From positions 1 to 39,462 of the forward strand of contig JAQWFF010000001.1 of NCBI GenBank assembly GCA_028704525.1: a stretch of DNA of 39,462 nucleotides, given 5' to 3'. The notes under the pieces are model-generated. The model was not told the DNA's origin. It saw nothing but the letters and a program-made list of their open reading frames with translations, and did no database searches. This document shows, piece by piece, positions 1-39,462 of this stretch (the stretch's first letter is position 1; each line of letters opens with the position of its first letter). The DNA is from Candidatus Dojkabacteria bacterium. Its GTDB lineage: Bacteria; Patescibacteriota; Dojkabacteria; SC72. Position numbers and translations under genes: made by a program.

Positions 1-127
1 AATGCCATTGCTTCTGGAGATGGATTATCACCCATCCTATACTTCACATCCTCAAACTGCTCATTAATAATTTTAGATTTCTCATTCATTGAATCATCAG
101 AAACATAGAAAATCTTGTTAATACCAT
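1..127. repeat. Terminal direct repeat, left copy (identical to 39336-39462)
   Basis: Aligning the first and last lines of the window base by base gives an exact match with an offset of 39,335. The start codon complement 'cat' at 87-89 corresponds to 39422-39424. Confidence 0.9.
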
Positions 128-3100
128 TCTCTGCAAGGATGCTAAGTAATCTGTCATGTATCTTCTTATTAGTATCTTTTCTATAATACTCTGGAAGAAT
201 TGCACCACTAAACTCATTCAAAGCTACTGCCCTTCTAGGCTTTGCTTCAAGATATGGTACTGGAGCTGAAAGAAGTCTATCAGCCCACTTCTTTGTTTTC
301 TCTACAAGGTATTCATCTGTAACTGAATCAAACTCATAACCATTGTTTCTAAATGCAGAAATGAAACTTGCCATAGTCCTACTTCCCTTTGCATAATCCC
401 CCATTGCATACTCTAAATGCTCTGAACCTCTATAATCAAATTCAAACTCTCCTTTGTAATCTTTTGTACTAAACTTGTTGTACTGCTCTAACTTCTGAGC
501 TTGTTTTGCAAAGCTATTATATTGCTTAGAGGTTATCTCATCATACTCTGCTTCACTTACCAGCCTTCCATAACTATCCCTCTTGGCTTGTGCAATTGAT
601 TTATATTGTTTAGCACCTTTTGCTTTAATTAGGTTTATACCACCAAATATACTTCCCTCCTGTCCTTTAATCCCCTTACCAAACATAGCTCTTACTTTGT
701 TCTCTGTAGTATATGGCTCTTTCTTACCACTAATCTTTATATATGGCTCACTAAACATTCCATCAAAATATCTCTCAATCCATGCTTCATACCTATCAAA
801 TGTACCATCATCAATCTCCTGCACTTTTTTCTCAATTGCTTCCTTTGTTGCATACTTATCAACCTCTTCTCCTGTCTTATTCTTCTCCAGCTCTCTCAGG
901 CTTCTGTATAATCCATATAAGAAGTGTTCTAACTGTACATCATTATCATACTGCTCCATTACACCTTCTACATACACTTGCTTCATATACTTGGTATCAA
1001 GTCTTGTATTCTTATTAGCTTCTTCTTCTACCATTTGCTGTACTATTGCCTTCTTCTGTTTCATTACCTTCTCATCACCCTCTGCAACTTCCTGCATCAA
1101 AAAGTCTTTGTTCTTTTTAAATGTTTCTGTTTCTACATACTCCTGATAAGGAATATGTAACGGCTTGTAGATAATTGGTACTTTTATTCCCCTCTCTTCT
1201 AAATATAGAGCCTTCATTGCATGGCTTCTCTTTGCTTTGTAAAACAATTCACCCTTTGCATCACCATGTTGAATAGCATCCTGAAGGTCATACATATAAT
1301 CATCAACCTTATCAAACATCTCTTGAACTGCTTTGTCATTAAAGTAGAACTCCTGCCATTGTTTCTTATTAAGGTCATATTCTGGAGCTGGTACTCTTGG
1401 AGAATATATATCATGAGAATAAAGCCTGTTATCTCTATCCACTTCTGGATCAATAATCTCTCTACCACCTACAAGAGTTATTTCACCAAACCCTCTTATT
1501 GGATTCTCTGGCTTTGTTACTGCAAGTGATGGAGCTGGGAGCTTCCCATCAAATTGAGCTAATAGCAAATTCTCAGCAGATATATTATGCAATGTAACAA
1601 GTGGCTGTAATACACCACCTACTTGTGTTCTAAACATTCTTCTCTTCTCTTGTCTATACTCTGGATTTACTCTTCCATCTGGAAGTAATTGGTCTGTCTT
1701 AGTTCCAGCACCCTGAATAGATGCAAGATACTTATTCCAATTCTTCTGTTGCTTTGCTTCTAATCTTTGCTGTCTATCAAGTAATCTTCCAGATATAAGA
1801 CTCTCATAGAAATCATCAATGTCTTTAATATGGTCAATACCTCTAAACATTCTATCTACAAATACATCTACCATTCTCTTTAACTTACCCCAGAAAGTAG
1901 TAGAGTTTCTATTGTTAATATAATCAATAATATTCTCTGCCAACCATTCCTCAGCCATTGCATCTGCACTTACTACTTGGGAATCAACACCTCTGTACAT
2001 ACCTTTTGCATTTTTAGTAATACCAAACTGATTCCTATACTCTCTCTGCTTACTTCTTTGTGAAGCATTTTTTGAATATGGTAAATCTCTTGGGTCAAAT
2101 TTGCCCTCTACAATTGTATATGGATTCTCAAAATCAGCAGGTTTAAGTGCTGTAATATGCCATGTCTTTCCATCTACTTGCTCTCCAGCAAGACCAAACT
2201 GACTTCCATCTATAAGAGATTGAGCATGTACAGCATCCATTTCACCATCTACAAGATATATAACTCTCTCTCCAGTTTTTGCATCCACATATTGAACAGA
2301 AGAACCATACAGATTCTCAGGCTTTATACCAACACTTTCTGCATAAGATAAAAGAAGATTCTCTTTACCACTCCATTCTGGACTTCTCTTTGCAATATCT
2401 TCTACTCCAACACCAGCTCTTCTAACTGATGGGAGATTCAATTCATAACTTGCTAATGCACTAGACCAGTAACTTGCCAATCTTAGCTTATCTTCTGATG
2501 TCCTTCCATTCCATTCCTTTACAAGATTCTCTTTCCCTACTCTCTTTACAACCTCTTTTATCATTGCACTCTTCTCATCTGCTGTAAGGAATATATCAAA
2601 AGCTTTATGTACTGCTTCATGATAGAAGGTACTTCCAATATGAGCTTGACCACTCTTGATCTCAATCAACCTATTAAGATACACACCAAGAGCCTTCTTG
2701 TTTCTTAGTATGTTTTTAACTAGCTCTACATTATCATCACCAAACCATACTTTACTTATCTCCTTCATAGCACCTATTGTCATTTGATCCTTCATCTTAT
2801 CCTCTAAGACTTTTAATTCATCCTGTCTGAATGGAAGATCATCATCTGTAAACACATCTTCTCCCTTATCAAATGCCAATGGAGATTCTTTTAAAACCTC
2901 CATTTCTTTTTTCATCATTGCTAATATTTCTTTTGCATATCTTTCATCTTTAGATACCCTGCCCATATCAGAATCCAATGTTGTTTTGAAAATAAACCTG
3001 TAATCATCAACAACTTTTTGCTGATCTTTGATCTCTCTCTCTAATTGTGCTACATATTTATCATATCCACCAGCAACCTTAACCTTCTTATTTACCTTCT

Positions 3101-5663
3101 CCATGTATTTATCAAGTGCATATTGTTTAGGATTCTCTTTTTTATACTGAGCTTCCTCTTCCTCTAAGAAAACAGAATCCATTAAAGAAGTTGCAATATC
3201 TTCTATAGATGTCATTCCACTATCTACTTCTTCTTGCATACCATCTCTTTTAATCATTGATTCAATCTCATTCTTTATGGAGGTTCTAACCATATTAAAC
3301 TCATTCTTCATCCCTTCAGGTATATACTTTGATGTCTTCTTATACCCTCTTAAACTATCAAACGCCAACTGAATAATTTCTGGATTGCTAGATTCTTTTG
3401 AGATATATTCTGGCAAAACACCTTTTATTTCTGGGACTTCTTTTAATACTGTACCTTTCTTCTCAATCTTTTCTGGGGTTACCTCAGGCTTCTGCATCTC
3501 TACCCCTTCTCTACTCTGACTCTCTTCTAAGATAGCTTGATATACTTGCCATGCCTTTGTACCTTCTTGTGGGATTGTGTTATTTAAGAAAGCATCATAT
3601 GCCTTCTGTACATACTTCCTACTTCTCAATGCTTCTGGAATAAACTCTGGTATTACCATTCCTTCTACTCCATAACTGTAATCCTCATTACCATAGTTAG
3701 CACTCTCTGAATCACTTACTTTTGAAACAACTTTCCTTTTTGCTCCCTGATCTAATACTGCACTTATATCTCTTAATACTTCTTGAACCTGAGCATCCTC
3801 TGAATAATCAGTTTTAACCTCACCCTCTTCTATCTTAACTTCCTGTACTGGCTCTGCTACCAACCCACTTTCTGCTTGTGCAATATCTGCCTTTAACATC
3901 TCTTCTTCCTTGTCTATTTCAACACCACCAAATACTGATTCTGGCTCTTTCATAACCTCTTCTTTAGGTACTATAATCTCTCCAGAATCAACATCATACA
4001 AATTACCCTCTTTATCTAAAGCCTTATCTTCTGCAAGACCAAACTTCTCTTTGTTGTTATTTATGTAATCAATAGATTTTTGTTTATCTTTATTCTGAAC
4101 ATAACCCTGTATCATTGCTCCAGATTGTGTAGCACCAAAGCCAAGAATCTCTATCAACATTCTCTCTCTACCTTCTTTAGTATCAATCCCTTGATATTCT
4201 GTTCTTTCTATGGCAGATTGTAATGGATTGAGTAACTCTTCCTCTAAGAACTCTCCAACTACACCATCAAACTTAGCTTGTTTCAAAAGACCATAGAGAG
4301 TACCTTGAGCCAATTTACCAGTTTTTCTCATCCAGTTAGCAAAACTACCAAACACCTTAGTTTTAATAAGACTATTCATAAACTCTTCACCACCAGTACC
4401 CAATACCTGACCCCAACTTTCTGAATATACTTCTAAGAAATTTGAAAGCTTTGCCATTTGCATTGCTTTGTTATCCTCTGAAACAACACCAAAACCTTGC
4501 TCCTCTTCTGAATACCTTGCATCCTGTAATTTCTCAAGAATAATATCACCTGTCTTATCTACAAAATATGCATATTCTGGAGTAGTAAGCTCTAAATACT
4601 TCCTATCAATTTCTGAGGTATAATGTGGAGCAAGATTCATAGCTCTTACTGCCTGAACACCTGCAACTTCTAAAGTCTTTAAAAGCCCTGTTGAAACACT
4701 TGTTGGATCTGGTACTCCACCACCTGAAAGAACTGCTGATGTTGCCATTGCACTTCCCCATCCAAGAGATGTTCCCTGTAAGCCAAATATTTTGTCCATA
4801 AGGCTTTTATCAATCTCCTTCTGCTGTTCTAGTTTATTAACAAAATCTATTAAGGCATATGACTGCTCACTTTCTGAAAGACTATCCCATCCCTCTTTCT
4901 CTAGTTTTCCTGTTGCTTCTGCACCTTTCTTTAATGTAGATGTATTAAATGTTGGAGTTGCTATTGTAGTTCCCTCTTCATTGAAAGCATTACCTTTAGC
5001 AAATCCCATATCAATATTCTTTAAGAACTCTGGAAGTATTCCCTTGCTTATATAAGTCATTCCAAGCTCTGCTTCTAACTTCTTTAAAGCAATATATTCT
5101 TGTGTTCCCTTAACCCTTTCATAATCTTTTCCTATTATTTGAGGATTTGTTCCTAACTCCTCACTCAATGTATCTACCTTCTCTTTAAGAATTTCATAAG
5201 CCCTTAGCTTAGCTAAATCTTGTACCTCTTGTAATGTATCTATTTTCTCCTGACCTGTTTTGAGATTGTCATAGTATTGTTGTAGCTCTTCTCTATTTAC
5301 TTTCCCACCCTTACTTTCAAATCCAATAAACTCTTCTTGAAATCTCTCCCAATCTGTTCTTTTATCTCCCTCTTTTCTTTTACCAAGTGTTATATCCTTA
5401 ACAAAATTGCCAACCTTCTTGAAAAAACCAACCTTCTCTTCCTCTGGCTTTACAACTTCTTCTGTAGGCTTAGTTGATTCTTCCATTTTCTCTTGATAAG
5501 AAGTATCTTCCTCAGCAGTATTTAACCAAGCATTAAAACTTTCAAATGTACCACCTTCTTGAGATTCTGTACTTTGTTCTGTAGATAAACTATTAGAAGA
5601 AGATTTCTCTTTCTCATCTTCATCATCATCTTCTAACCACTTTCTGAAGTCATTGATAGCCAT
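1..5663 (-). CDS. Giant multidomain virion or ejection-type ('polyvalent'-like) protein, N-terminal ~1,887 codons. The ORF runs off the left edge and continues at 39335
   Basis: Manual translation from the ATG at 5663-5661 (MAINDFRKWLEDDDEDEKEK...) found no stop down to position 1. It is missing from the ORF track because it has no stop codon inside the window. An HEAVH (HExxH) motif is encoded at 2607-2621. Only junk plus-strand ORFs are listed in this 5.6-kb stretch. Confidence 0.85.
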   Translation of the reverse strand, partial: MAINDFRKWLEDDDEDEKEKSSSNSLSTEQSTESQEGGTFESFNAWLNTAEEDTSYQEKMEESTKPTEEVVKPEEEKVGFFKKVGNFVKDITLGKRKEGDKRTDWERFQEEFIGFESKGGKVNREELQQYYDNLKTGQEKIDTLQEVQDLAKLRAYEILKEKVDTLSEELGTNPQIIGKDYERVKGTQEYIALKKLEAELGMTYISKGILPEFLKNIDMGFAKGNAFNEEGTTIATPTFNTSTLKKGAEATGKLEKEGWDSLSESEQSYALIDFVNKLEQQKEIDKSLMDKIFGLQGTSLGWGSAMATSAVLSGGGVPDPTSVSTGLLKTLEVAGVQAVRAMNLAPHYTSEIDRKYLELTTPEYAYFVDKTGDIILEKLQDARYSEEEQGFGVVSEDNKAMQMAKLSNFLEVYSESWGQVLGTGGEEFMNSLIKTKVFGSFANWMRKTGKLAQGTLYGLLKQAKFDGVVGEFLEEELLNPLQSAIERTEYQGIDTKEGRERMLIEILGFGATQSGAMIQGYVQNKDKQKSIDYINNNKEKFGLAEDKALDKEGNLYDVDSGEIIVPKEEVMKEPESVFGGVEIDKEEEMLKADIAQAESGLVAEPVQEVKIEEGEVKTDYSEDAQVQEVLRDISAVLDQGAKRKVVSKVSDSESANYGNEDYSYGVEGMVIPEFIPEALRSRKYVQKAYDAFLNNTIPQEGTKAWQVYQAILEESQSREGVEMQKPEVTPEKIEKKGTVLKEVPEIKGVLPEYISKESSNPEIIQLAFDSLRGYKKTSKYIPEGMKNEFNMVRTSIKNEIESMIKRDGMQEEVDSGMTSIEDIATSLMDSVFLEEEEAQYKKENPKQYALDKYMEKVNKKVKVAGGYDKYVAQLEREIKDQQKVVDDYRFIFKTTLDSDMGRVSKDERYAKEILAMMKKEMEVLKESPLAFDKGEDVFTDDDLPFRQDELKVLEDKMKDQMTIGAMKEISKVWFGDDNVELVKNILRNKKALGVYLNRLIEIKSGQAHIGSTFYHEAVHKAFDIFLTADEKSAMIKEVVKRVGKENLVKEWNGRTSEDKLRLASYWSSALASYELNLPSVRRAGVGVEDIAKRSPEWSGKENLLLSYAESVGIKPENLYGSSVQYVDAKTGERVIYLVDGEMDAVHAQSLIDGSQFGLAGEQVDGKTWHITALKPADFENPYTIVEGKFDPRDLPYSKNASQRSKQREYRNQFGITKNAKGMYRGVDSQVVSADAMAEEWLAENIIDYINNRNSTTFWGKLKRMVDVFVDRMFRGIDHIKDIDDFYESLISGRLLDRQQRLEAKQQKNWNKYLASIQGAGTKTDQLLPDGRVNPEYRQEKRRMFRTQVGGVLQPLVTLHNISAENLLLAQFDGKLPAPSLAVTKPENPIRGFGEITLVGGREIIDPEVDRDNRLYSHDIYSPRVPAPEYDLNKKQWQEFYFNDKAVQEMFDKVDDYMYDLQDAIQHGDAKGELFYKAKRSHAMKALYLEERGIKVPIIYKPLHIPYQEYVETETFKKNKDFLMQEVAEGDEKVMKQKKAIVQQMVEEEANKNTRLDTKYMKQVYVEGVMEQYDNDVQLEHFLYGLYRSLRELEKNKTGEEVDKYATKEAIEKKVQEIDDGTFDRYEAWIERYFDGMFSEPYIKISGKKEPYTTENKVRAMFGKGIKGQEGSIFGGINLIKAKGAKQYKSIAQAKRDSYGRLVSEAEYDEITSKQYNSFAKQAQKLEQYNKFSTKDYKGEFEFDYRGSEHLEYAMGDYAKGSRTMASFISAFRNNGYEFDSVTDEYLVEKTKKWADRLLSAPVPYLEAKPRRAVALNEFSGAILPEYYRKDTNKKIHDRLLSILAENGINKIFYVSDDSMNEKSKIINEQFEDVKYRMGDNPSPEAMA

Positions 5664-5686: not shown

Positions 5687-7138
5687 TTAGATTCCAAGTA
5701 TGCTTAAAGGAGCTACCTTGTTATTTTTGAAATCCCATGTCTGATAACCACCAGACTTTAAAGCATTGTACAAAAGCTCTGTACCAGCCTTACCATACTT
5801 TGCTACAAATTCACTATTTGCCTTCTTAATTTCCCAATCAGCCAACACCCTATCTCCACCAGTTTTACCTGTACCAGTTGTACCACCACTATTTACAATA
5901 TCATCTTCATATTTTTCCTCAAGAGTGTAAAGGAAGTTTAGAGATTCCTTCTGCATTGATTGCCATTGAGCAGAAGTGTACCCATAACTATTCCTTGTAG
6001 TTGTTGAACCACCACTACTTGCTACCTTTGTTTTGCCAAGTGTCTGATGTTTTACTGTTACTGCACCAGTATATGGATCTACATAGATTATATCTGCAAT
6101 TACATTTCCATATTGGTCTGTTCTATTAGTTATAGACTTGATTGTTGAACCAGCTGGAATCTTTATTCTTGAAGTAAATCCTACTGGAAGTCCAGCTTGT
6201 ACCTCAAGCTTGTGAATTGCCAACTGCTCTGCTTCACTCATATCACTCCATCTCATTTGTCCACTTGTAATCATATCTGCATACATTGATAATTGAGCTG
6301 ATGCTGTCTTTTGCTGTTCTTGTCTTAGAGCCATCTTGAAATCTCTTTCATCTCTTGCCTGTTCTACAAGTGAATCATATACTGCCATTCTCTTATTAAA
6401 CTCACTATCATATGCTTCCTTTGCAGTATTGTAGTCCATCTGTTTAAACTGCATTGTCATATTGATATATGTATATGCACTATTTGCTACATCTGTAAGA
6501 TACTGTACATTACTAGAAAGCCAACTAATCTGCTCTTGTCTATCCCTTGTAGCTTGGTCTATTCTTCCTTCAATCACTCCAAGCCTTTGTGTCTTACCTC
6601 TTTCTGTATTTCTCTGTTGCATGAGAAGATTCTCTTGCTCTCTAATCATATTCTTATACTCATTGATACTTGATTCAACACTATCCAATCCCATGTCCAA
6701 TCTCAACTTGTTAAATGTTTCTTCAAACTTAGGAGCTACTGGAGCTTCACCTTCCATCCCAAGTGCATCTCCTGTAATAAATTCACTTACAGCTTCACCA
6801 GATGTTTCTCCATCAAATGGGTCAAAGTTCTCAAGTGCTTCTAGTTCTTCCTGCTCTGTATTTAAGAACTCTGCCAACTCTTCTGAATTTGCTGGAGCAT
6901 TTTGTGGTATTGTAGGAGCTGGAGTTGGAGCTGGAGTAGATGTAGAAGTTGTTGATGTTTTACCCAGAAGAGAATCTGGTATTATCAATTTCTGTCCTGA
7001 ATAAATAGTATATTTGCTGTTAAGCTTATTAGCTTGAGCTACTGCATCCCATGAGCTTCTTGAGCCATATGTAGAAACACCCAAATTCTTGAGGATTTGA
7101 GATACACTATCCCCTGACTTTACTGTTACTGTTGCCAT
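5687..7138 (-). CDS. LysM-domain protein with Thr/Pro linker and coiled-coil-like middle region (virion-associated cell-wall binding protein?)
   Basis: The N-terminus VTVKSGDSVSQILKNLGV...YSGQKLIIP fits the LysM pattern. It is followed by a TSTTSTSTPAPTPAPT linker. The gene sits between the tail genes and the giant ORF. Confidence 0.7.
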   Translation of the reverse strand: MATVTVKSGDSVSQILKNLGVSTYGSRSSWDAVAQANKLNSKYTIYSGQKLIIPDSLLGKTSTTSTSTPAPTPAPTIPQNAPANSEELAEFLNTEQEELEALENFDPFDGETSGEAVSEFITGDALGMEGEAPVAPKFEETFNKLRLDMGLDSVESSINEYKNMIREQENLLMQQRNTERGKTQRLGVIEGRIDQATRDRQEQISWLSSNVQYLTDVANSAYTYINMTMQFKQMDYNTAKEAYDSEFNKRMAVYDSLVEQARDERDFKMALRQEQQKTASAQLSMYADMITSGQMRWSDMSEAEQLAIHKLEVQAGLPVGFTSRIKIPAGSTIKSITNRTDQYGNVIADIIYVDPYTGAVTVKHQTLGKTKVASSGGSTTTRNSYGYTSAQWQSMQKESLNFLYTLEEKYEDDIVNSGGTTGTGKTGGDRVLADWEIKKANSEFVAKYGKAGTELLYNALKSGGYQTWDFKNNKVAPLSILGI

Positions 7139-7221: not shown

Positions 7222-8118
7222 CTAAGTTAATAGGTTAAACTCTTCATCTAATGCCAACTCATATAATGTATAATCCAATGTTAATGTTCTCTCTGGGAAA
7301 TCATCTTCCCACCAAACATTTTCTCTCCACCAACTAATCTTCAGTTCTGTTTCATCTATTTGTACATATATAAGCTCATATGATTGCATATCATCATCAC
7401 TAGCAATTGTTGGGTCTGTTAAACTATTCAAATCTACAACAGAAGGTATATTTGCAAACCCATCATAAATAGTGGAAAGATTAGTAAGAGTAGGAATTTG
7501 AGGAAAGAAAAAGGGAATATATCCAAGATTATGAACATAACTAACTTCATGATAACTTCCATAACTCATTAAGTCCTCTGGAGCTGTAATACTTAGTTGT
7601 CCACTCTTTATTACTCTTGGAGTATTCCATAATGTATCTATATGCATATCTTTAGGTAAATCTAAATCACAATCTTTACCCTCTTTAGCCACCCTTATTG
7701 AAGGATAGTTAGGATATACAATGCTATTACCAGTACCATCAATCAGGGGATCAAACATGTAGAATATTTGCAGTTTCTCTGTATATGCTCTTAGATTTAT
7801 ATTGAAATTTGTATTATCAACTGTTACATATGAGAAAGTATTTGAACCATAATTAGGCTGTGCATCTCCAACATGCGACCATTTATCATAAACCTTAATC
7901 ATATGCCAGAATCTAGGAATATAACCTAAACCATGAGCTAATGTAGTTGTGTAATCAGTATCCTCATCAACCCCACTTGGTCTTGTAATAACAACACTCT
8001 TGTAAATTTTAGGAGTATTCCTTTCAGAAGAGAAGCTTTTATCCTTATCTTGTAAAGTAATATCATCTAAATCTCTTCCTTGTCTTGCTACCTCTAAAAC
8101 AGGTTTAATACCAAGCAT
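7222..8118 (-). CDS. Tail or baseplate-associated protein made of two copies of a ~145-aa domain (paralogous to 8105..8530)
   Basis: The motifs VLEVARQGRDL...NTPKIYKS...HGLGYIP and IRVAKEGKDCDL...NTPRVIKS...HNLGYIP occur twice within this ORF. It overlaps the upstream gene by 14 nt. Confidence 0.45.
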   Translation of the reverse strand: MLGIKPVLEVARQGRDLDDITLQDKDKSFSSERNTPKIYKSVVITRPSGVDEDTDYTTTLAHGLGYIPRFWHMIKVYDKWSHVGDAQPNYGSNTFSYVTVDNTNFNINLRAYTEKLQIFYMFDPLIDGTGNSIVYPNYPSIRVAKEGKDCDLDLPKDMHIDTLWNTPRVIKSGQLSITAPEDLMSYGSYHEVSYVHNLGYIPFFFPQIPTLTNLSTIYDGFANIPSVVDLNSLTDPTIASDDDMQSYELIYVQIDETELKISWWRENVWWEDDFPERTLTLDYTLYELALDEEFNLLT

Positions 8119-8530
8119 CTGTATCAGAAATCAAATTAACTATAATTATATAATCAATACTAACAGTTTCTCCAACAGCTCTCCAATCATCAGTTCTCAA
8201 TTGTACCCTGATATTATCAACATCCAAATGCTTCTTACCAACTTCTATCTTATGATATACTCCAGTAACTTCCCATCTATACATATAAGGAATTGTTCTG
8301 TAGAAGGATTCTGTACTTAACTTAAAATATCCTTCTACTAAAGGATACCAGCCAAGATTGTGATTCAAGTCCACATGGGGATTGTAATTAGAAATACCAG
8401 CTGATAATGTACCAGTAAAAGTAAGATACTCCTTTATAGTATTCTTAGTGGAATCAATATTCTTATGTATATCTTCACAAGTATTAAGGTCATACCCTTC
8501 TCTTGCTACTTCTAATATTGGTATTAACAT
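8105..8530 (-). CDS. Tail or baseplate-associated protein, single copy of the same ~140-aa domain
   Basis: ILEVAREGYDL...NTIKEY...HNLGWYP matches the domain pattern of 7222..8118. The gene lies in the structural block. Confidence 0.4.
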   Translation of the reverse strand: MLIPILEVAREGYDLNTCEDIHKNIDSTKNTIKEYLTFTGTLSAGISNYNPHVDLNHNLGWYPLVEGYFKLSTESFYRTIPYMYRWEVTGVYHKIEVGKKHLDVDNIRVQLRTDDWRAVGETVSIDYIIIVNLISDTDAWY

Positions 8531-11131: not shown

Positions 11132-12060
11132 TATTTTTCTCCTCTTAATTTAGTCCAATCATCTTCATCCTTGCTTGTCTTGGTAAAGACCTCTTCATCC
11201 TTACTTGTCTTATCCCAATCACCAACAAGCCTTGCTACCTTACTTGTAACTACAACATCTATAGCTCTCTTAGTCCAATCTTTAACATCTATGAAACTCT
11301 TTTCCCAGTTGATAATCATTCCATTCAATTTTCTGGCAAGAGTATCTGTTAAACCAATCATACTACTTAATACTATTCTAGCACTTTTTACAAAAGAATC
11401 AGATAGAGATATGGAATCAACAAAGTTTTTAATTGGCATAATGAATCCTGAATCAACAAGCCCTATTCCTTCACTTAAAGTTGTCATTGTTTTTTTAGCA
11501 ATACTATCAATTGCAGAGATAGTATCTGTAAAAATTAAAGAAAGTGTTTGAGCAAAGGTAAGACTATCTGAAGCTTGAACTTCATCTGTAAATGTTTTAG
11601 TTGGCAATACCTTTGCAACAATCTCTGATAATGACAAGTTATCCACAAATGTGAGTAACTTATCCAACTTCTTGCCAAAAGTATCAGCCATACCAATGCC
11701 ATCAGTAAAGAGCCTTGAGAAGAATTGGAAGTAATCTGTAAAGAAGTTATCCACAACATTGATTGAATCAACAAAGACTTTGAGTAGCACCTTTGAAATA
11801 GATCCTGTATCAGCCACACCTATACCATCTGAGAAGGGAGTTTTATTTGTAAGCTTGTTAAACACTTCTGTAAGACCAACAGCATCTGCAAACACTTTCA
11901 TTGGGAAAAATACATGAGAGTCGGTAAGCCCTATCCCATCAGAAAAGCTTTCTGTATATTCCTGAGATAGAACTGGATTTCCACCCAAGTATGTTTGAGA
12001 TAAATAATTGCCACCTGTAGATCCATTACCTGCTTTTATACTCATTGTTAGTAGTATCAA
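11131..12060 (-). CDS. Fiber-like protein built from a short periodic F-x-D-x-[IV]-x-[LV]-x-D repeat
   Basis: About a dozen copies of the FSDGIGLTDS / FADAVGLTEV / FVDSINVVDN type. The track start at 12060 is TTG. An ATG five codons downstream (12045, MSIKAGNG) is the more likely start. Confidence 0.45.
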   Translation of the reverse strand: MILLTMSIKAGNGSTGGNYLSQTYLGGNPVLSQEYTESFSDGIGLTDSHVFFPMKVFADAVGLTEVFNKLTNKTPFSDGIGVADTGSISKVLLKVFVDSINVVDNFFTDYFQFFSRLFTDGIGMADTFGKKLDKLLTFVDNLSLSEIVAKVLPTKTFTDEVQASDSLTFAQTLSLIFTDTISAIDSIAKKTMTTLSEGIGLVDSGFIMPIKNFVDSISLSDSFVKSARIVLSSMIGLTDTLARKLNGMIINWEKSFIDVKDWTKRAIDVVVTSKVARLVGDWDKTSKDEEVFTKTSKDEDDWTKLRGEK

Positions 12061-12090
12061 ATTAAGACTCTACATTCCTATTTAATTCTA

Positions 12091-13221
12091 TCACGATAAT
12101 TCAAATGAAGGTAATGGATGTTTATCCCCTACACTTGAATGAAACTTAGCAGTCTTAAAATTGAGAATATCTCCATATGAAGTTCCTATGGAACTGGTAG
12201 CAAAGGCTTTAAAGTAGTACAAAGTGTTCGGAGTAAGTCCTGATAAAAATATGGAGTAAGTTCCCAATCCACTTGTACTTGTTAGTTTGGTAGTCTGACT
12301 AAACTCGTCTGTTCCATAGTAGACACCCCTCTCTGTTACAGTCTCAGTCCCTTGGTCGGTTACATTTCCCCCAAAAATAACACACTTCCTGTCTAACCTA
12401 CTTGTCGTTGTAGTACTTACCACTGGAGCATCTGCACTCTGTGTAGTTAATTGTGCAGTTATTCCATAAGAAGTCCCTACCGAATTGACTGCATAAGCCC
12501 TTACTCTGTAGTCTGTAGAAGCACTAAGTCCTGTCAATCCTTTTGTGTAAGCACCCGTTCCAAAGGTTCCGTCGTCATAAGCAGTTGAATCAGCTACTGT
12601 AGGGTCGCCAGATGTACCTGTCTTATAGCAAAAACCTCTCCTTGTTACAGAGCCACCCGTAGATGTTATATTTCCATTTCCAACTGCCGAGTTATGGGTA
12701 ACACTAGAACACGCCTGTGTAGTTACAGTAGGAGCAAAGAGCTCTCCATATACAGCAAAAGCCAAATCATGTGTTGCATACGGTGTACCTCCTATAAACT
12801 TATTCCCACTATGAGTAGGACTTGTATTATCTGTTCCAGTATATACAAGACCTGTTCCACCAGAATACCTGAACACAACAATAGTATAATAAGTACCTGA
12901 CTGCATGATATATCTTTCTGTACCTGTAAATGTAAAAGTTATTGCAGTATAAGAAGTTCCAACAGTATCTATACTCACATCCCCAGATGAAGCAATTCCA
13001 TATCCACCAGCTTCAGAACTTGTACCATATGTTCCTGAATGTTCAGCCAACATAGCATACAGATTACCAGTAGCACCAGCGTCTTTTTTAAGATAAAAAG
13101 TACAGCTATAAATAGGAAGAGTTTGAGAACAAGTAAAAGATTGCCCATGATATGTAGCATTGGAAATAGGACTATCATAACTAATATTACTGTTGCTATA
13201 GCTATCAATTAATGTTGCCAT
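12091..13221 (-). CDS. Tail-fiber-associated protein with two tandem FN3/Ig-like repeats
   Basis: The unit ...NGNITSTGGSVTRRGFCYKTG...LTGLSASTDYRVRAYAVNSVGTSYG is repeated as ...GGNVTDQGTETVTERGVYYGTD...LSGLTPNTLYYFKAFATSSIGTSYG. The CpG content is atypical for this genome. Confidence 0.5.
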   Translation of the reverse strand: MATLIDSYSNSNISYDSPISNATYHGQSFTCSQTLPIYSCTFYLKKDAGATGNLYAMLAEHSGTYGTSSEAGGYGIASSGDVSIDTVGTSYTAITFTFTGTERYIMQSGTYYTIVVFRYSGGTGLVYTGTDNTSPTHSGNKFIGGTPYATHDLAFAVYGELFAPTVTTQACSSVTHNSAVGNGNITSTGGSVTRRGFCYKTGTSGDPTVADSTAYDDGTFGTGAYTKGLTGLSASTDYRVRAYAVNSVGTSYGITAQLTTQSADAPVVSTTTTSRLDRKCVIFGGNVTDQGTETVTERGVYYGTDEFSQTTKLTSTSGLGTYSIFLSGLTPNTLYYFKAFATSSIGTSYGDILNFKTAKFHSSVGDKHPLPSFELS

Positions 13222-33562: not shown

Positions 33563-33898
33563 CTAACTAAATCTTTCTTCCAATGCTGGAATACTTTTAA
33601 TGATCAATTCATATATAGTCTGAATCATACCCTTAATAGCTACAAAGTTGATAAAGAAGAACTGTAGGAGATTCCCAACATTCTCTTCAAAGCTTTCTAC
33701 CCATTGATATTTAACAAGAACTAAAACAAGTGCAACTGCTCCTGATAGTAATGTAATTACTAATCTCTTCTCTGCTGTTGTAAGGTCTTTCTGGAATATC
33801 TTTCCAATAAACTTGAAAAGAGAAGGCAATACAAATGGAGCTAATGAACCAATTGCTCCTGAAACACCAGCACTTAAAATGAATAATTCGCTGTCCAT
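33563..33898 (-). CDS. Holin-like membrane protein (three predicted TM helices)
   Basis: 111 aa with hydrophobic segments SAGVSGAIGSLAPFVLPSLF, LVITLLSGAVALVLVLV and LLQFFFINFVAIKGMI. It lies downstream of the M23 peptidase gene and is followed by a strong terminator. Confidence 0.4.
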   Translation of the reverse strand: MDSELFILSAGVSGAIGSLAPFVLPSLFKFIGKIFQKDLTTAEKRLVITLLSGAVALVLVLVKYQWVESFEENVGNLLQFFFINFVAIKGMIQTIYELIIKSIPALEERFS

Positions 33899-34047
33899 TA
33901 TATTTTAGATAAAATAAATTTAACTAACATTGTACAAAACAGAATAATACTTGCTGAATATATTATTATGTTTAGTATGTCATTCACTTTTTTTCTTTCC
34001 TTGTTTAATCTATCTTTAATTGTACTAACAGGCTTCAATTGTTCCAA
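33898..34047 (-). CDS. Possible 49-aa membrane micro-protein with TTG start (…NDILNIIIYSASIILFCTMLVKFILSKI)
   Basis: Translated manually. Its stop overlaps the holin-like ATG as TAATG. It has no ATG start, so the call is weak. Confidence 0.25.
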   Translation of the reverse strand: MEQLKPVSTIKDRLNKERKKVNDILNIIIYSASIILFCTMLVKFILSKI

Positions 34048-34077
34048 AAAACAATCTCTAATAATTTAAGGATACTC

Positions 34078-35163
34078 CTACTTCTTCTTAGGAAATAGTT
34101 TCTCCAACAAATCTACAACCCATATAAACCTTCCATTCTTATATGCATTTAACTCTGATACTGCCTTTGTTCTATCATTTTCTGCTGTCTTTCTTTTAAT
34201 AACCTCTGTACCATACTTATCTTCTAATTCCTGATAATCAATCTTATCCTGTTCAATCTCTCCATTCTTTTCCATGATAACTTCATCCATTACTTTAATC
34301 TTATCATTAAGCTTTACTATCTCTGCTTCTAGCTCTGTTATCTTTGCACTATTATCAACTGGTACAATTACTTTACTTCCATCTACATTGGTAACAGATG
34401 CTGTACTTTTTGTTACCCAGTATTCACCACCATCCTTTTTAACAGCACACATGCCACAATCATCACCAAAACTCATGAGATACCAACTGTAGCCACCATT
34501 GGCAATTTCAATGCTCCTGACAAGCCCTACAGCTCCAGATTGAACAGTAAGACCCCTCTTGAAGTATTTATCATCAATAATAAAAGCTTCCCTAAGCTTT
34601 GTATTCTCATTAAACTTTATTTTATCTCCAATGTTAAACATAGTTGTATTTCCCTGAGAAATTATATCACCATTTAAAACTAAGTTCCTGATTTTCAATC
34701 CCCTATTACTCCATTCATCCAGATGAAGATGAGGAGCAAACCCTGTTACACTCTGAGGAGCTATCTTACATATAGGACTACCAGCCTTTACAAGACCCTT
34801 AGCCCATTGATAAGTATGCACCAGAGCTATTACATAATCACTTCCTACTGGCTGTACCTTACACCAGCTACCATCACTAGGATTTGTTGCCAATACATTT
34901 ACATCAACATTCATTGATAAAACTGCACCAGCTACAATTGAAAAGTCTATTGGATTTCTATTGGCATTACTTACATACTTTGCATGAGAGCCACCAATGT
35001 ATGTCTTATATCCAGATGGTAAAGTTGCTGTATCAAACTCTGCAAGAATTGGCTTGTAATATGTACCAGCACTATTTCTGTAATACTTGCCACTTTCATT
35101 CTGAGTTACTGGTACAGTAGCTAAGTCCTTACCACTTGCATATATTATATATTTTTTTGCCAT
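34078..35163 (-). CDS. M23-family peptidoglycan endopeptidase with C-terminal coiled coil (endolysin or virion lysin candidate)
   Basis: It has the PHLHLDEW (HxH) motif and an upstream H...NPIDF (HxxxD-like) motif of LytM/M23 peptidases. The C-terminal ~90 aa are Glu/Lys-rich heptads. Confidence 0.7.
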   Translation of the reverse strand: MAKKYIIYASGKDLATVPVTQNESGKYYRNSAGTYYKPILAEFDTATLPSGYKTYIGGSHAKYVSNANRNPIDFSIVAGAVLSMNVDVNVLATNPSDGSWCKVQPVGSDYVIALVHTYQWAKGLVKAGSPICKIAPQSVTGFAPHLHLDEWSNRGLKIRNLVLNGDIISQGNTTMFNIGDKIKFNENTKLREAFIIDDKYFKRGLTVQSGAVGLVRSIEIANGGYSWYLMSFGDDCGMCAVKKDGGEYWVTKSTASVTNVDGSKVIVPVDNSAKITELEAEIVKLNDKIKVMDEVIMEKNGEIEQDKIDYQELEDKYGTEVIKRKTAENDRTKAVSELNAYKNGRFIWVVDLLEKLFPKKK

Positions 35164-35180
35164 ATCAACTTAATGACAAA

Positions 35181-35618
35181 TTAAACATGATCAATTAAAG
35201 ACATAAACCATTCAATAATACCTTGAATAATTGGAATACTATTTACTATTGTTGTAATACCTATAAGACCTAGCAACCATCTTACATTGGTATAGAAGGT
35301 AATCATTTTACCAAGAGATTCAAGCTTTGATTCTTTCTGTCCTTTTTCACAAAGATTCATATCTTCAAACCAATCAAGTGCAGGTTCAGCTCTTTCTATT
35401 ATTTGTAGGTCTGTGTTTTTTTTAGCATAGAGATATGCAAAATTAGCTCTGGCTTTTAAGGTATCTTCTTCATTAGTACCTATTTCACCAAGCAATAATC
35501 TTTCCAATCTGGATAATGTTGATTTAACTTCAGTAAGTTCTTTTAAAACATCCTTCTGTATCTTCAATGCTTCTTCTCTAGCAATTGATCTTACTTCCCT
35601 CTCTGTTAATTCTGCCAT
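35181..35618 (-). CDS. Membrane protein with N-terminal coiled coil and C-terminal TM helix (lysis-cassette associated?)
   Basis: 145 aa. It has a C-terminal hydrophobic segment, WLLGLIGITTIVNSIPIIQGIIEWFMSLI. It is the first gene after the giant ORF and directly precedes the M23 peptidase gene. Confidence 0.35.
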   Translation of the reverse strand: MAELTEREVRSIAREEALKIQKDVLKELTEVKSTLSRLERLLLGEIGTNEEDTLKARANFAYLYAKKNTDLQIIERAEPALDWFEDMNLCEKGQKESKLESLGKMITFYTNVRWLLGLIGITTIVNSIPIIQGIIEWFMSLIDHV

Positions 35619-35695: not shown

Positions 35696-38600
35696 TTAAA
35701 ATAACTTTGTTTTATTGTCATCATCCTCTTTTTCACCATACCTCTTATCATAACTTGCTTGTGTTATTGCAATGTATTTCTGGAATCCAGCCTGTGTAAT
35801 CAGCCCATCCTTGAACAACTTTCTCAAAGTATCATTATCCATAGCATCTCTTTTTCTTAACTCATTAAGCAAATCATTATTACTGTCCTGACTTAAAACT
35901 GGGATAGATTCTTTAACAACCTTATATATTAAATCCTGACTTAGATTCTTATCCTTTGCATACTCTGCAAACATCTCTCCTTTAACTACTTCATATCTTA
36001 CAGCCTGAGCCATGAAGTCTTTAAACTCTTCATCACTCATCTTCTTCTTCTGACTATTGATTATCTCAAGCTTTTCATCATTATCAAGTCCAGCCTTTGC
36101 AATACTCTTATATACAGCATTACCACTATTTGCAAGAATCTCTCTCTTAAACTCACTCTTTAACCTTGTTTCTTCTGCCTTCTCTGTACCACTCCAACCC
36201 CCTTCTGGTCTTTCACCTTTGACTTCTATTACATATTTCTCCTGAAGCTCCAATAATTTCTTATTGGAAGGCTCTGCATAATAGCTCTCTATAAATCCAT
36301 CCAATGTTTTATTCTTTTCTCTCTTACCAAGTGCCTTGTCATTCTCTTCTCTCTCTTGAAGTCCATAATTTGTAAGCTCAAACATTCTTTCCAGAAGTGG
36401 AAGCTCCATTGTCTTTTCTAAAGTTGTATCAGAAGATTTGTCATATGTAGAGAAGTTAGTTAAGCCCATCTCATTGCTAGTCCATTTAAGCATCTCAGTA
36501 AATCTGGTCATACCACCTTCATTCCACTTACTTGTGTTAATTGCCAACCTTCCCCTAAAGTCATCATAAGGATTTCTACCCTGTAGGTATTGTTTCCAAT
36601 CTCTCATTATAGAAAGAAGAGGATTATCTCCAGTAGTAAATGGTACAAGTCCAGCAATTGCACTTCCAAGTTGTTCTACTTTCATACCTTCACCTTGTAG
36701 ATATGTAGCCATCTTCCATACAAGATTACCTATTACTGCACCTACTTCATCAGAAGGAGCTTTAACAAACATAAAACTTTCACTCTCTTCATCATATCCA
36801 ATTGGAAATGCCATATACATACTCTTGTAATACTCTGATAGATAATCATATGGATTTACCCACTTCTTCTTTTCTGGATCATCTGGGTCTGGAATTGGAA
36901 CTCTCAATATACTTGCACCAAGTAGCATGAGTAACTTAGGGAATACTATCTTAAACATTGTACTTACCCAATACCCACTTGCTGTTTTAGGTCTTGTTGC
37001 CAAGTCCATATCAGCTGTAATTGCTTGAATACCTACATTACTAAAGACTACCAGCTCATTTGTAAGAGGAGTAAACTTACCTTTCTGCATATAATCTGGA
37101 GTACCTACATACCTTCTTGTATAAAAGGAAGCCTTCTCATCTCCTACCTTATCTGATAAATACTGGAATCCAGCTATCTTACTATTTACCTCAAAAGTTG
37201 AACCAGCTCTCATATAGAAGTCATACATTGGTACAAGTGTATGCTTAATTACAGGAATTGTTGATCCCCAATCTCTAAGGGTTTCCAACCAGTTCACACC
37301 ACCCTTAAATACTATTCTGTTTTTAACAGGATCAAACTTAAACTTCTCATTGCCAAGATCAATATCTTCATACTTAACATTGCTAGACAGTACATACATA
37401 TCCAACATCTTCTGAGTAATAGCATCCATTTCACCACCAGCATAATTCCAGCTTCTCTTTAAGTTCTTAATCCATTCCCTTGTAAATGCTCCAAAGACTT
37501 TAGCTGTTCTACTTACTACATTACTCTTATCAAAGAGTCCTGATAATGCTGTTAGATTTGTAAGACTTCTCTGATAGTCCTTGATTGGATTGCTATAGAA
37601 CTGGAAGGATGCCTTCATTACAGTTACAGCAGGTTTAAAGATTCTATTTACCATTCTTAGTGGAGCTGTAACAAACCTCATTGTATCCCAGAACCAACCA
37701 TTAAGACTATTGTCAAACATGGCAATGATATACTTATCCATATAGTATGCACTCTTCTTTCCATCTTCCAAAAGTTCCAATTGTGCATAACCACTCCTCT
37801 CAAGCTTAGGATTCTTTTTAAATCCAACGACTCTACCTTCACCATCCTTTATTGCTTCTGCTTTTACAATCTCATCAGGGAATATTTCTGCAAGACTTTT
37901 TACTACATCCTGCTTTGCATTATTTCTTGCTGTTAATTTCATAAGACTTAAACTCTTTAGCATCTGAGTTGTAAGAGGATTCTCAACACCCTTTGTTGTA
38001 CCAACTGCTTGTATTATTCCAGCTGTAACATAGTTATCCTCAATGTAATCCACAACTGCAAATGGAGTATAAGTATTCTTATTTACTGTAGCTATCTCTT
38101 CAAAGAACTTTTCACTATATACACCAGCTTCATATCCTTTTCTTACAAGCTCAAAATTGTAATCTCTCCACCAACTCAACTTCTCTGAAAGAAGATTCCA
38201 TTGTGCTGGAGTAAGCTGTCCTTTAACAAAGTCATAAGTTTCTTTAGCATAGTCATATACAAGCCCATGAGGATTTGCTAGATCTAATCTATCACCAAGA
38301 TTCCTTTCAAGTACAAGTATCTGTCCTACTGTATCAATGTCTATTCCAGCTTCACTTACTGGAACAAAGAACTCATTTTGTACATCTTGTGCATATTTAA
38401 CTGCATCATTACCTTTAAGAGCTAAATCACCCATCAACTGTTCTGCTTCTTCCAGCTTTGAAAGTGTAATCTTCTTATCCTTCCAAGCCTTTCTCAACTT
38501 GTCCAGATATGGAGCATACTGATTCACAAAGCCCATCTTAATACCAGTAATACCTTCTTGCCACTTACTCTGTTTTCTATAGGCTTCCTTCTCTTCATCA

Positions 38601-39462
38601 ATTGTCATTCTCTTTCCTCTTGCAATCTCCTGAGCTTTCTTCATATTCTCTACTCTACTTTGTACTTCATTGCCTTCTTTTATCATATCTCTTATAGCAA
38701 AGTATTCATTCTGTACTTCCTTCTTCCTTGCCATGTACTCAATGAATCCCTGATAGAAGTTAGGAGCAACCTCTTTAACCAGAGATGGCTTGTTAAGAAA
38801 TACTGATAGAGCTTCTGCATATAATTCTTTAGCTGAGTATCTGTAGGTCTTATATTTCTTAGGTACACTTGCTTCATCAAATGGATTCCATACCTGAGTA
38901 AGAGCCTTTAATTCCTTCCTGATTTCTTTATTGTTTAGATCCATAAATTGCCCTTCTGTATAACTTCTAAGATTTGCTATCCTTCCTAGAATATTCCCTC
39001 TTTTAAGAGTCATATTCTCAGTACCACCAAACCAATCAAACAAGTGTCCTATCTCATGAGCTAGTACCTTCTCAATTGCATGTATTCTATCCATCTGTTG
39101 CTCTGATGTTTCTGGTAACTTCTCTACATTACCCTCTCCATCCATAACCTCTTCACCTTGTGGCTCAAACAACTCTCTGAGGATTCTGATTCTTGAATCA
39201 GTATTTGCACTTGGAGTAAAATCTCCAAGCTTTGCTCTACCTCTAAACTTCTTCTGGAGCTTTATATTAGCTCCAAGCTCTGTTGCCATTGTAATAAGTT
39301 CTGGGAGCTTTACTGACACAGCTGACTCTTGCTCTAATGCCATTGCTTCTGGAGATGGATTATCACCCATCCTATACTTCACATCCTCAAACTGCTCATT
39401 AATAATTTTAGATTTCTCATTCATTGAATCATCAGAAACATAGAAAATCTTGTTAATACCAT
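35696..39462 (-). CDS. Giant multidomain protein, C-terminal 1,242 codons plus upstream open frame to the window edge (same ORF as 1-5663)
   Basis: The track ORF 35696..39424 begins at an internal Met. The frame stays open upstream to 39462, and this Met (equivalent to position 89) is in frame with the ATG at 5663 (5663-89=5574=3x1858). An HEIGH zincin motif is encoded at 39044-39058 (VLAHEIGHLFDW). Confidence 0.85.
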   Translation of the reverse strand, partial: GINKIFYVSDDSMNEKSKIINEQFEDVKYRMGDNPSPEAMALEQESAVSVKLPELITMATELGANIKLQKKFRGRAKLGDFTPSANTDSRIRILRELFEPQGEEVMDGEGNVEKLPETSEQQMDRIHAIEKVLAHEIGHLFDWFGGTENMTLKRGNILGRIANLRSYTEGQFMDLNNKEIRKELKALTQVWNPFDEASVPKKYKTYRYSAKELYAEALSVFLNKPSLVKEVAPNFYQGFIEYMARKKEVQNEYFAIRDMIKEGNEVQSRVENMKKAQEIARGKRMTIDEEKEAYRKQSKWQEGITGIKMGFVNQYAPYLDKLRKAWKDKKITLSKLEEAEQLMGDLALKGNDAVKYAQDVQNEFFVPVSEAGIDIDTVGQILVLERNLGDRLDLANPHGLVYDYAKETYDFVKGQLTPAQWNLLSEKLSWWRDYNFELVRKGYEAGVYSEKFFEEIATVNKNTYTPFAVVDYIEDNYVTAGIIQAVGTTKGVENPLTTQMLKSLSLMKLTARNNAKQDVVKSLAEIFPDEIVKAEAIKDGEGRVVGFKKNPKLERSGYAQLELLEDGKKSAYYMDKYIIAMFDNSLNGWFWDTMRFVTAPLRMVNRIFKPAVTVMKASFQFYSNPIKDYQRSLTNLTALSGLFDKSNVVSRTAKVFGAFTREWIKNLKRSWNYAGGEMDAITQKMLDMYVLSSNVKYEDIDLGNEKFKFDPVKNRIVFKGGVNWLETLRDWGSTIPVIKHTLVPMYDFYMRAGSTFEVNSKIAGFQYLSDKVGDEKASFYTRRYVGTPDYMQKGKFTPLTNELVVFSNVGIQAITADMDLATRPKTASGYWVSTMFKIVFPKLLMLLGASILRVPIPDPDDPEKKKWVNPYDYLSEYYKSMYMAFPIGYDEESESFMFVKAPSDEVGAVIGNLVWKMATYLQGEGMKVEQLGSAIAGLVPFTTGDNPLLSIMRDWKQYLQGRNPYDDFRGRLAINTSKWNEGGMTRFTEMLKWTSNEMGLTNFSTYDKSSDTTLEKTMELPLLERMFELTNYGLQEREENDKALGKREKNKTLDGFIESYYAEPSNKKLLELQEKYVIEVKGERPEGGWSGTEKAEETRLKSEFKREILANSGNAVYKSIAKAGLDNDEKLEIINSQKKKMSDEEFKDFMAQAVRYEVVKGEMFAEYAKDKNLSQDLIYKVVKESIPVLSQDSNNDLLNELRKRDAMDNDTLRKLFKDGLITQAGFQKYIAITQASYDKRYGEKEDDDNKTKLF
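39336..39462. repeat. Terminal direct repeat, right copy (identical to 1-127). It indicates a circular or terminally redundant genome of 39,335 bp
   Basis: Exact 127-bp identity with 1-127. An overlap of exactly 127 nt is what a de Bruijn assembler run at k=127 leaves on circular contigs (established knowledge about assemblers). Confidence 0.9.

Follow-up and report, generated by a model that had tools for sequence, protein, structure and literature searches.

Polyvalent proteins of phages, their metallopeptidases (MPTases), their PBECR domains, their virion context and their mosaicism have been described by Iyer et al. (2017, J Bacteriol; PMC5512222). Members of this class are presumed to enter the capsid and to be injected together with the DNA. 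According to Iyer et al. the phage variant of the MPTase is characterized by an HExxH motif, an Asp three residues on, a distal Glu and variable inserts between the catalytic helices. Mosaicism is presented there as the defining trait of polyvalent proteins, suggesting an arms race, and for gp50 of phage N4 a layout with an N-terminal injection part and a C-terminal encapsidation part is given. For gp47 of phage phi24B, which is abundant in virions by proteomics and invisible in the reconstruction, the authors propose a capsid-packaged ejection protein (bioRxiv 10.64898/2026.04.10.717836). The Bcep22-like podovirus JC1 has a DarB-like giant gene of 22.1% of its genome, which belongs to the morphogenesis module and lies ahead of the lysis module; a DarB-like giant is also common in Ralstonia phages (PMC9144972). 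Here we analyzed the 39,462 nt of contig JAQWFF010000001.1 (positions 1 to 39,462; assembly GCA_028704525.1, assigned to Candidatus Dojkabacteria), in the following called the window, and a giant open reading frame (ORF) of 3,100 amino acids (aa) encoded on it.

The assignment of the giant ORF to the phage-type polyvalent proteins is largely right on sequence grounds, with two zincins, a PBECR5 domain, mosaicism and a virion gene context pointing in this direction. Probably, the protein also fills the last internal virion or ejection protein slot of a podovirus-like structural module.

On the minus strand the reading frame starting with the ATG at 5663 is free of stop codons down to base 1, and on the rotated circle it continues through 39335 to a stop at 35696. 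Bases 1-127 of the window are an exact copy of 39336-39462, thus the unique circle has a size of 39,335 bp. With 9,303 nt including the stop codon, the ORF takes up 23.65% of it. This bears out a preliminary description of the window, which had proposed a single ORF of ~3,100 codons and ~24% of the genome hidden by the linearisation. The start cannot be located further upstream since three in-frame stops (TAA TAA TAA GAC AAG) precede the ATG. Given the base composition, 3,100 codons would be free of stops by chance with a probability of ~1e-118; in 50 shuffles, stop-free runs reached 233 codons at most. The region 1-5663 appeared empty in the mechanical ORF list, which contained only a 1,242-aa ORF (35696..39424), because this list omits ORFs running off an end. 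In GenBank the gene is stored as two partial hypothetical proteins. The 5' part (aa 1-1887; 1..5663, minus strand) runs off the left end and corresponds to MDD4381719.1 (1,887 aa), and the 3' part (aa 1846-3100 plus the stop at 35696-35698; 35696..39462, minus strand) corresponds to MDD4381761.1 (1,254 aa), with 39336-39462 duplicating 1-127.

The terminal repeat of 127 bp (39336..39462) marks a circular or circularly permuted assembly. A length of 127 is also a common maximum assembler k-mer. As the join rests on the terminal repeat of one contig, an assembly artefact, in which two genes (1,858+ and 1,242 aa) were joined by a chimeric 127-bp overlap, had to be considered. This explanation is already refuted. 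The Logan assembly of SRR22315502 contains a 37,999-bp contig which is opened elsewhere and carries the giant gene internally with the same neighbours. Compared to the rotated window it showed 0 mismatches in 21,303 bp, including 800 bp across the junction, so that the check for a chimeric join, made on this second assembly without read mapping, was negative; this contig (L008) is independent of the window and confirms the junction. A 3,113-aa protein of at least 90% identity is also encoded on three other contigs with sizes up to 39.9 kb. Additionally, full-length homologues of 3,110-3,442 aa (here named P0002-P0005) align over the junction, and in P0002 the PBECR5 cassette likewise meets the C-terminal module at aa 1880/1881, a few codons from the junction.

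Based on 13 homologues, a sliding-window identity map and iterative searches, six parts could be delimited in the giant protein: an acidic leader, an N-terminal module (N-module), a variable linker, a first zincin module (zincin-1), the PBECR5 cassette and a C-terminal module (C-module). Pfam recognized PBECR5 (PF18814) as the sole domain (aa 1355-1564, E=6e-27, 95.5 bits at a cutoff of 25 bits). The only match in PHROGs was phrog_22978, a group of giant proteins of unknown function (aa 1355-1875).

The leader (aa 1-60; 5484..5663, minus strand) is acidic, as noticed before, and common to P0002-P0004 and P0009. It is followed by the predominantly helical N-module (aa 61-715; 3519..5483, minus strand), in which Gly/Ala-rich stretches occur together with a conserved G(W/F)DGxxGExxEE motif and which was found near the N-terminus in 32 of 247 family proteins. 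Its C-terminal end is formed by the conserved motif IPEFIPE..RSRK..PQEGTKAWQVYQ. Searched against the sequences of the PDB, the N-module profile gave nothing below E=0.05.

The closing motif of the N-module, about 45 aa long with the pattern IPEFIPE.LRSRK...KAYDAF......PQEGTKAWQVYQAILEE (aa 660-715; 3519-3686, minus strand), recurs in P0002-P0006, P0008, P0016 and P0021, even where the surroundings differ. It could be a docking or cleavage element.

The variable linker or cassette (aa 716-930; 2874..3518, minus strand) consists of a stretch without a match in any of the retrieved relatives (aa 721-840) and one found in P0005 only (aa 841-930). The zincin-1 module (aa 931-1320; 1704..2873, minus strand) is a split metallopeptidase composed of a helix with HEAVH (aa 1015-1019, DNA 2607-2621) and a distal helix with E1239 and E1243. 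Among the relatives, H1015 was kept in 20 of 21, E1016 and H1019 in all 21, and both distal Glu residues in 19 of 19. The variable insert of about aa 1050-1200 in between, at which other relatives carry cassettes of 0 to ~700 aa, is the insert described between the two C-terminal helices of MPTases (PMC5512222).

The PBECR5 cassette (aa 1321-1880; 24..1703, minus strand) includes the Pfam-defined part at DNA 972-1601. H1359 and S1379 are invariant in five proteins at ~25% identity and fit the active site of PBECR RNases, which consists of a His and an alcoholic residue (PMC5512222). The cassette travels as a unit of ~500 aa including its C-terminal ~300 aa, as seen in P0013, P0014, gp32 of Cobetia phage Carin-1 and CDS0016 of Acinetobacter phage Ab9. 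The close relatives P0003-P0007 are without it. A search of aa 931-1881 against PDB sequences yielded nothing below E=0.05, and NCBIfam had no match for the zincin-1/PBECR region or the C-module.

The C-module comprises 1,220 aa (aa 1881-3100 plus the stop at 35696-35698; 35696..39358, minus strand, with 39358 equivalent to window position 23) and is the family-defining chassis. It begins with a second zincin (~aa 1896-2110; 38669..39313, minus strand) that contains LPEL, HEIGHLFD (aa 1981-1988) and E2058, the latter within KELYAEA (DNA 38825-38827). The codons of HEIGH (aa 1981-1985) are located at DNA 39044-39058. Both HExxH sites had thus been placed correctly in the preliminary description, and they are conserved zincin sites in the relatives. 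In 215 family sequences H1981, E1982, G1984, H1985, E2058 and A2061 were conserved to 100% and D1988 to 98%, and HEIGHLFD together with E2058 is recognizable as the HExxH-xx-D of a predicted phage-type MPTase with its distal Glu. The giant protein has 20 His residues in total, four of them within the two HExxH motifs; by chance ~0.013 such motifs would be expected, with a probability of ~9e-5 for two or more.

The remaining part of the C-module (aa 2111-3100 plus stop; 35696..38668, minus strand) is large, mainly helical and homologous to the C-terminal region of phi24B gp47 and of gp20 of the Bacillus phage Page. Many polar residues, such as D2474, K2607 and NPxD at 2809-2812 are conserved to more than 95%, and a NPYDDFRGR motif is present. 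A moderately hydrophobic helix (aa 2684-2702, DNA 36893-36949) is conserved as well. Membrane insertion by this helix was considered and is unsupported, since it is mostly below transmembrane grade: its Kyte-Doolittle (KD) hydropathy exceeds 1.6 in only 23% of the family members.

An AlphaFold2 (AF2) model of the C-module from a 50-sequence alignment reached a mean pLDDT (predicted local distance difference test) of 80.4 and a pTM (predicted template modelling score) of 0.63. Its first ~210 residues form a short N-terminal helix, beta strands, the HExxH helix and, later, the E2058 helix. This arrangement in the model agrees with the zincin core as given in PMC5512222. Apart from a few beta hairpins, the remainder is mainly helical. 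A Foldseek comparison of the model with BFVD yielded 62 matches at ≤1e-3, the best at 1e-30, with TM-scores of ~0.4-0.5 over ~1,000 columns. Most of them are pieces, numbered _2, _3 or _4, of larger phage proteins. The named ones comprise Large polyvalent protein associated domain, LPD38, LT_GEWL, RelA/SpoT, methylase and helicase entries, with proteins of E. coli phage PTXU04, Ralstonia phage Alix and Cellulophaga phage phi46:3 among them, and those called LPD38 matched at about 1e-12 to 1e-15. In gp47, Page gp20 and the relative P0247 the Pfam domain LPD38 starts just after the region homologous to the C-module. Matches in the PDB to the zincin anthrax lethal factor were weak and sub-threshold (E ~0.15); they fit a zincin and are not counted as evidence. 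Neither the single sequence nor the profile of the C-module found anything below E=0.05 among PDB sequences.

An exhaustive phmmer search of 1.84 billion representatives (50%-identity clusters) retrieved 1,887 clusters with the C-module at E≤1e-3 and 1,197 at E≤1e-30. In 169 of the 233 proteins with a complete module it ends at most 60 aa from the C-terminus, and across all 244 matched proteins the median number of residues after it is 11. The 233 proteins have a median length of 2,088 aa and a maximum of 4,608 aa. The preliminary description had called a gene taking such a share of its genome very unusual. This was overstated, since 33 of the 233 are at least 3,000 aa long, the Carin-1 and Ab9 giants occupy 21-22% of their genomes and that of JC1 22.1% (PMC9144972). 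A minimal form of the architecture is represented by P0210 (1,388 aa; contig L024, 6001-10167, JGI 3300062715), which is little more than the C-module alone and is directly followed by Phage_holin_4_1 and VanY/M15 endolysin genes. An 837-aa gene precedes P0210 and might be its detached N-terminal half.

According to the identity map, cassettes are replaced between relatives which are otherwise 70-100% identical, giving a mosaic architecture. In P0003 the identity amounts to 89% over the C-module and to 71% over aa 1-1075, and aa 1076-1219 and the entire PBECR5 cassette are replaced by unrelated sequence. P0006 carries ART-PolyVal downstream of the same zincin-1, and P0002 shows 91-100% identity per 60-aa window over aa 1021-1900 and is unrelated over aa 78-510. 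In distant proteins the C-module is preceded by RadC/JAB, SNF2/helicase, N6_N4 methylase, GGDEF, ddrB-ParB or 2'-5' RNA ligase domains, with both methylase and helicase present in P0011 and P0012. Further upstream partners among the relatives are ART-PolyVal, SLT, glucosaminidase, PBECR1/MuF-C and LPD1/5/38.

C-module giants also occur in prophages integrated into Gemmatimonadales and Vicinamibacterales genomes, and hence lytic phages are not the only carriers of the family. Further members are located on contigs of metagenome-assembled genomes (MAGs) assigned to Saccharibacteria, Elusimicrobia, Planctomycetes, Opitutales and Flavobacteriales. One 1.18-Mb contig of a Gemmatimonadales MAG (L010, contig_10976) encodes at 10001-16294 a giant with a GGDEF cassette, with an HTH repressor and YqaJ nearby, and a 6.1-Mb Vicinamibacterales chromosome (L021, OZ252219.1) holds another C-module giant.

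The window is a complete circular phage genome inside a Candidatus Dojkabacteria MAG bin, and every recognizable gene is on the minus strand. In the direction of transcription the small and large terminase, portal, major head protein and tail-fibre-like proteins come first, followed by proteins of 767, 101, 141 and 298 aa, a 483-aa LysM protein and the giant gene. Three ORFs, two of them with transmembrane (TM)-like segments, come next, and then the genes for replication and recombination, of which an exonuclease, HNH, SSB-like and VRR-NUC gene were identified. The PHROG matches to terminase, portal, major head and tail fibre are located upstream of the giant gene on the same strand. The giant gene closes the terminase-portal-capsid-tail block. 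The synteny around it is kept in relatives. A hidden Markov model (HMM) search matched none of the five proteins directly upstream of the giant gene to nozzle or internal virion proteins.

The upstream neighbour is the LysM-domain protein (483 aa; 5687..7138, minus strand), which also adjoins the giant gene in the contig of P0007. Downstream (33563..35618, minus strand) there are ORFs of 145 aa with a C-terminal TM-like segment, of 361 aa, and of 111 aa with two TM-like windows, which by position are putative lysis genes; holin and endolysin genes occupy this slot in the relatives. The lysis cassette of the preliminary description is thus putative, being indicated by synteny and the small TM-bearing ORFs; none of the downstream ORFs had an HMM match.

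Another feature of the giant protein is the absence of cysteine. The other ORFs of the phage contain 0.72% Cys, so that ~22 residues would be expected in 3,100 aa, and none is present (P=2e-10). Among the family proteins 190 of 247 are Cys-free, as are T7 gp15 and gp16, N4 gp50, Carin-1 gp32, Ab9 CDS0016 and Page gp20. We infer that Cys is avoided in proteins which cross the tail channel unfolded and refold outside the producing cell. The absence is consistent with ejection, without being a proof, and could be used as an easy compositional marker of ejected virion proteins.

Taken together, these features suggest the following mechanism. The conserved end modules, namely the N-module and above all the C-module with its zincin, helical domain and LPD38-position region, would form a chassis that brings about entry of the protein into the capsid and, at infection, its exit through the tail. 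The middle part would be exchangeable cargo, in this phage a cassette with a putative endoRNase of the PBECR5 type, which may act on host RNA or defence RNA as soon as infection begins. By cutting the polyprotein, or else a different substrate encountered on entry, the two zincins may set free or activate the parts of the protein.

Several points weigh against this proposal. Packaging, ejection and proteolysis of the giant protein and its close relatives are inferred. The cargo-less P0210 has kept its zincin, so the main substrate of the zincin may not be the polyprotein itself, and for gp47 the phi24B authors suggest peptidoglycan as the substrate (bioRxiv 10.64898/2026.04.10.717836). The conserved helix at aa 2684-2702 lies below transmembrane grade in most family members (median KD 1.43). 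An AF2 model of the N-module from an 11-sequence alignment was unusable (pLDDT 47), and its profile found no match in the big database, where the candidate list was probably saturated by low-complexity E/K-rich words. Foldseek of the C-module model against the PDB gave nothing at ≤1e-3. Pfam finds no LPD38, a domain confined to the phage-type polyvalent proteins, in the giant protein, and a three-sequence LPD38 profile aligned to the C-module weakly and not significantly (E=0.009, 37 columns, in the expected register). Finally, no similarity to N4 gp50 or T7 gp15/gp16 was found (hhalign probability ≤1.1%).

The main rival, which we consider rather unlikely, sees in the giant protein a structural ejectosome or core protein analogous in function to T7 gp16. 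It would form a conduit through the envelope, its zincin would attack the cell wall and the effector cassettes would be secondary passengers. Such a role would suit the gp16-like slot of the giants of the Pelagibacter phage Baldr, Carin-1 and Ab9, the fusion of SLT or glucosaminidase to the C-module in many relatives, and the LysM protein directly upstream. T7 gp16 itself carries a transglycosylase, and gp15 and gp16 share the lack of Cys. The zincin of P0210 would find an explanation as well, and the phi24B authors favour this reading for gp47. However, no homology or fold match to T7 gp16 or gp15 was found, and the zincin is of the MPTase type that has been tied to polyprotein processing (PMC5512222). 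Moreover, ~40% of the giant protein is cargo-like and mosaic with exchanging cassettes, which a purely structural role leaves unexplained. The two readings are compatible and do not exclude each other.

That the protein is not packaged at all and acts inside the cell, early or late, in anti-defence or host takeover, merely lying beside the structural genes, appears very improbable to us. In favour of it, domains such as an RNase and peptidases could act in the producing cell. Nevertheless, even very distant relatives have the gene in this constant place closing the virion module, the homologous domain of phi24B gp47 was found in virions, Cys is avoided as in known ejected proteins, and late in infection an RNase that is toxic to the host would hardly be useful. 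Our preferred reading, a polyvalent protein that is delivered with the virion, can also be taken further. The N- and C-modules would then be a portable effector-delivery chassis of podoviruses with any cassette in between, even inside the zincin-1 core between its HExxH and Glu helices, the peptidase a self-cleaving release switch, and the C-module an undescribed ejection machine unrelated to T7 gp16, with the example coming from a complete phage of a candidate phyla radiation (CPR) bacterium. We regard this extended version as a rather doubtful speculation.

The remaining parts of the genome are described briefly. The 361-aa ORF downstream of the giant gene (34078-35163, minus strand) contains HLHLDEW, which resembles the HxH motif of M23 peptidases, and has a coiled-coil-like C-terminal tail. 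An identity as Peptidase_M23 had no HMM support in Pfam, PHROGs or NCBIfam, and a PDB sequence search gave nothing below E=0.05; a role as endolysin is putative. Upstream, the 298-aa ORF (7222-8118, minus strand) overlaps the adjacent 141-aa ORF (8105-8530, minus strand). Both open with ML.P.LEVAR.G.DL and are probably paralogous virion proteins. The contig of P0007 contains homologues of the 141-aa and 101-aa ORFs, with their order unchanged. A single tRNA-Thr (anticodon TGT; 27032-27104, minus strand) is located between the packaging genes and the early genes. The 825-nt stretch 31339-32162, between the HNH endonuclease and the SSB-like gene, contains no ORF of at least 60 aa; it is gene-free in independent Logan gene calls too, and its repeats are short and at chance level. 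It may serve as an origin or in regulation.

A CPR bacterium (Candidatus Dojkabacteria) is a possible host of the phage. The link is given by the binning and by hints at a monoderm-type host, namely the LysM protein, the lack of an obvious spanin-like gene pair and relatives of the capsid protein in phages of Gram-positive bacteria. The nearest cultured relatives of the capsid protein (~32% identity) belong to Page-group podophages of Bacillus megaterium and to Streptomyces and Paenibacillus phages. In a megablast search, 20 kb of the window had no match in 50,697 phage records. To our knowledge, no cultured phages exist for this CPR host group.

Giant polyvalent proteins, podovirus genes of ~22% of the genome and a virion-borne relative are already on record, and therefore the giant ORF is no new kind of thing. 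New is the correction of a split annotation, by which two partial hypothetical MAG proteins become one 3,100-aa phage gene. Linearisation can hide the largest gene of a phage, which is probably a recurrent problem in many circular viral contigs. New are also the possible CPR host and the very large C-module family with its fixed architecture, for which Pfam, NCBIfam and PHROGs have no dedicated model. Located where the structural modules of podoviruses end, the C-module serves as the anchor of exchangeable effector cassettes, and it is now tied to a virion protein of phi24B. Together with the invariant HExGHxxD…E site it offers a defined target for studies on packaging, ejection and processing of giant cargo proteins, and the natural cassette swaps are material for studying anti-defence payloads.

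Compared to known systems, the analogues named in the preliminary description fared differently. The polyvalent proteins stood, with PBECR5 (E=6e-27) in the giant protein and ART-PolyVal, RadC, SNF2, LPD1/5 and ddrB-ParB in its homologues, whereas the virion RNA polymerase (vRNAP) of N4 and the crAss-like giants are unrelated by sequence. N4 gp50 resembles the giant protein in being large (~3,500 aa), Cys-free, packaged in the virion and ejected, and in an MPTase-type HExxH in its C-terminal region. The earlier statement that an RNA polymerase (RNAP) signature is missing was confirmed: Pfam contained no match to an RNAP family at E≤1, and phmmer and BLAST against N4 gp50 were empty. An N4-type vRNAP was rejected on these grounds, with the limit that the PDB copy searched probably lacks new N4 structures. 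T7 gp16 (internal virion protein D) is comparable in its gene-order slot in T7-like relatives, in being Cys-free and, through SLT, to relatives of the giant. The giant protein differs in being 2.4 times larger and in its enzymatic cargo, and a homologue of gp16 was rejected (hhalign probability 0.3%; no gp16 match in Foldseek against the PDB or in phmmer). Comparison of the C- and N-modules with N4 gp50, T7 gp13-16, Carin-1 and Ab9 by hmmsearch, hhalign, BLAST and phmmer revealed nothing except the PBECR5 cassette in Carin-1 and Ab9. A DarB-type protein of phage P1, with its triad of LPD36, adenine methylase and SF2 helicase, was rejected as well, as no methylase or helicase Pfam match was found in the giant protein.

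The giant gene of JC1 is similar in its genome share and its place before the lysis module (PMC9144972). Bcep22-like giants differ by a methylase-helicase dyad and genomes of ~61 kb, and the link to them is given by the Foldseek match to Alix only (≤13% identity); Alix may be a relative, as the giant is frequent in Ralstonia phages (PMC9144972). Closer in genome size are the cultured podophages Baldr (Pelagibacter phage EXVC032P), Carin-1, Ab9 and Page of ~39-40 kb, which carry a hypothetical gene of 1,679-2,854 aa in the equivalent slot. CDS 020 of Baldr (2,329 aa) contains the full C-module (hmmsearch E=4e-100, hhalign probability 100%) and occupies the slot of T7 gp16, downstream of tail tubular A/B, two small proteins and one of 606 aa. 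Carin-1 gp32 (2,854 aa; LPD22 and PBECR5) and Ab9 CDS0016 (2,839 aa; GNAT and PBECR5), each 21-22% of its genome, are in this same slot, preceded by the nozzle, a pair of internal virion proteins and a protein resembling lysozyme. The podophage Page has a circularly permuted genome of 39.9 kb (PMC3990757). Its local order of a lytic tail protein, the 1,679-aa hypothetical gp20, and then holins and endolysin corresponds to that of the window. Page gp20 shares the post-zincin domain (probability 97.5%, E=5e-12) and has LPD38, and the capsid protein of Page is 32% identical to that of the window. These four giants are shorter, and none joins the same N-module, split zincin, PBECR5 and C-module. 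We found no functional study of any of them.

A related protein detected in virions is gp47 of the Stx phage phi24B (vb_24B_48, 2,807 aa; 933W-like podoviruses). It differs in having LPD5, LPD1, MuF-C and LPD38 and no PBECR5, two Cys residues and a diderm host, and in lacking the invariant HExGHxxD zincin directly upstream of the helical domain. Like the giant ORF it is a giant polyvalent protein closing the structural genes, with HExxH motifs and a ~600-aa helical domain that in gp47 precedes LPD38. The post-zincin domain aligned to gp47 with an hhalign probability of 98.6% (E=1.3e-15, 580 columns). With regard to the phage-type polyvalent proteins in general, the ~1,000-aa post-zincin part of the C-module and the N-module set the giant protein apart, as they match no Pfam LPD model. 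The fixed order of N-module, cargo and C-module and the position next to the lysis genes were worked out here and were not encountered in PMC5512222. In agreement with the proteins described there, the giant protein combines unrelated activities in a single chain (two zincins, PBECR5 and at least three further conserved modules), has MPTase zincins with HExxH-xx-D and inserts as well as a PBECR RNase domain, and is encoded among the virion genes of a portal/terminase phage with mosaic orthologues (PMC5512222).

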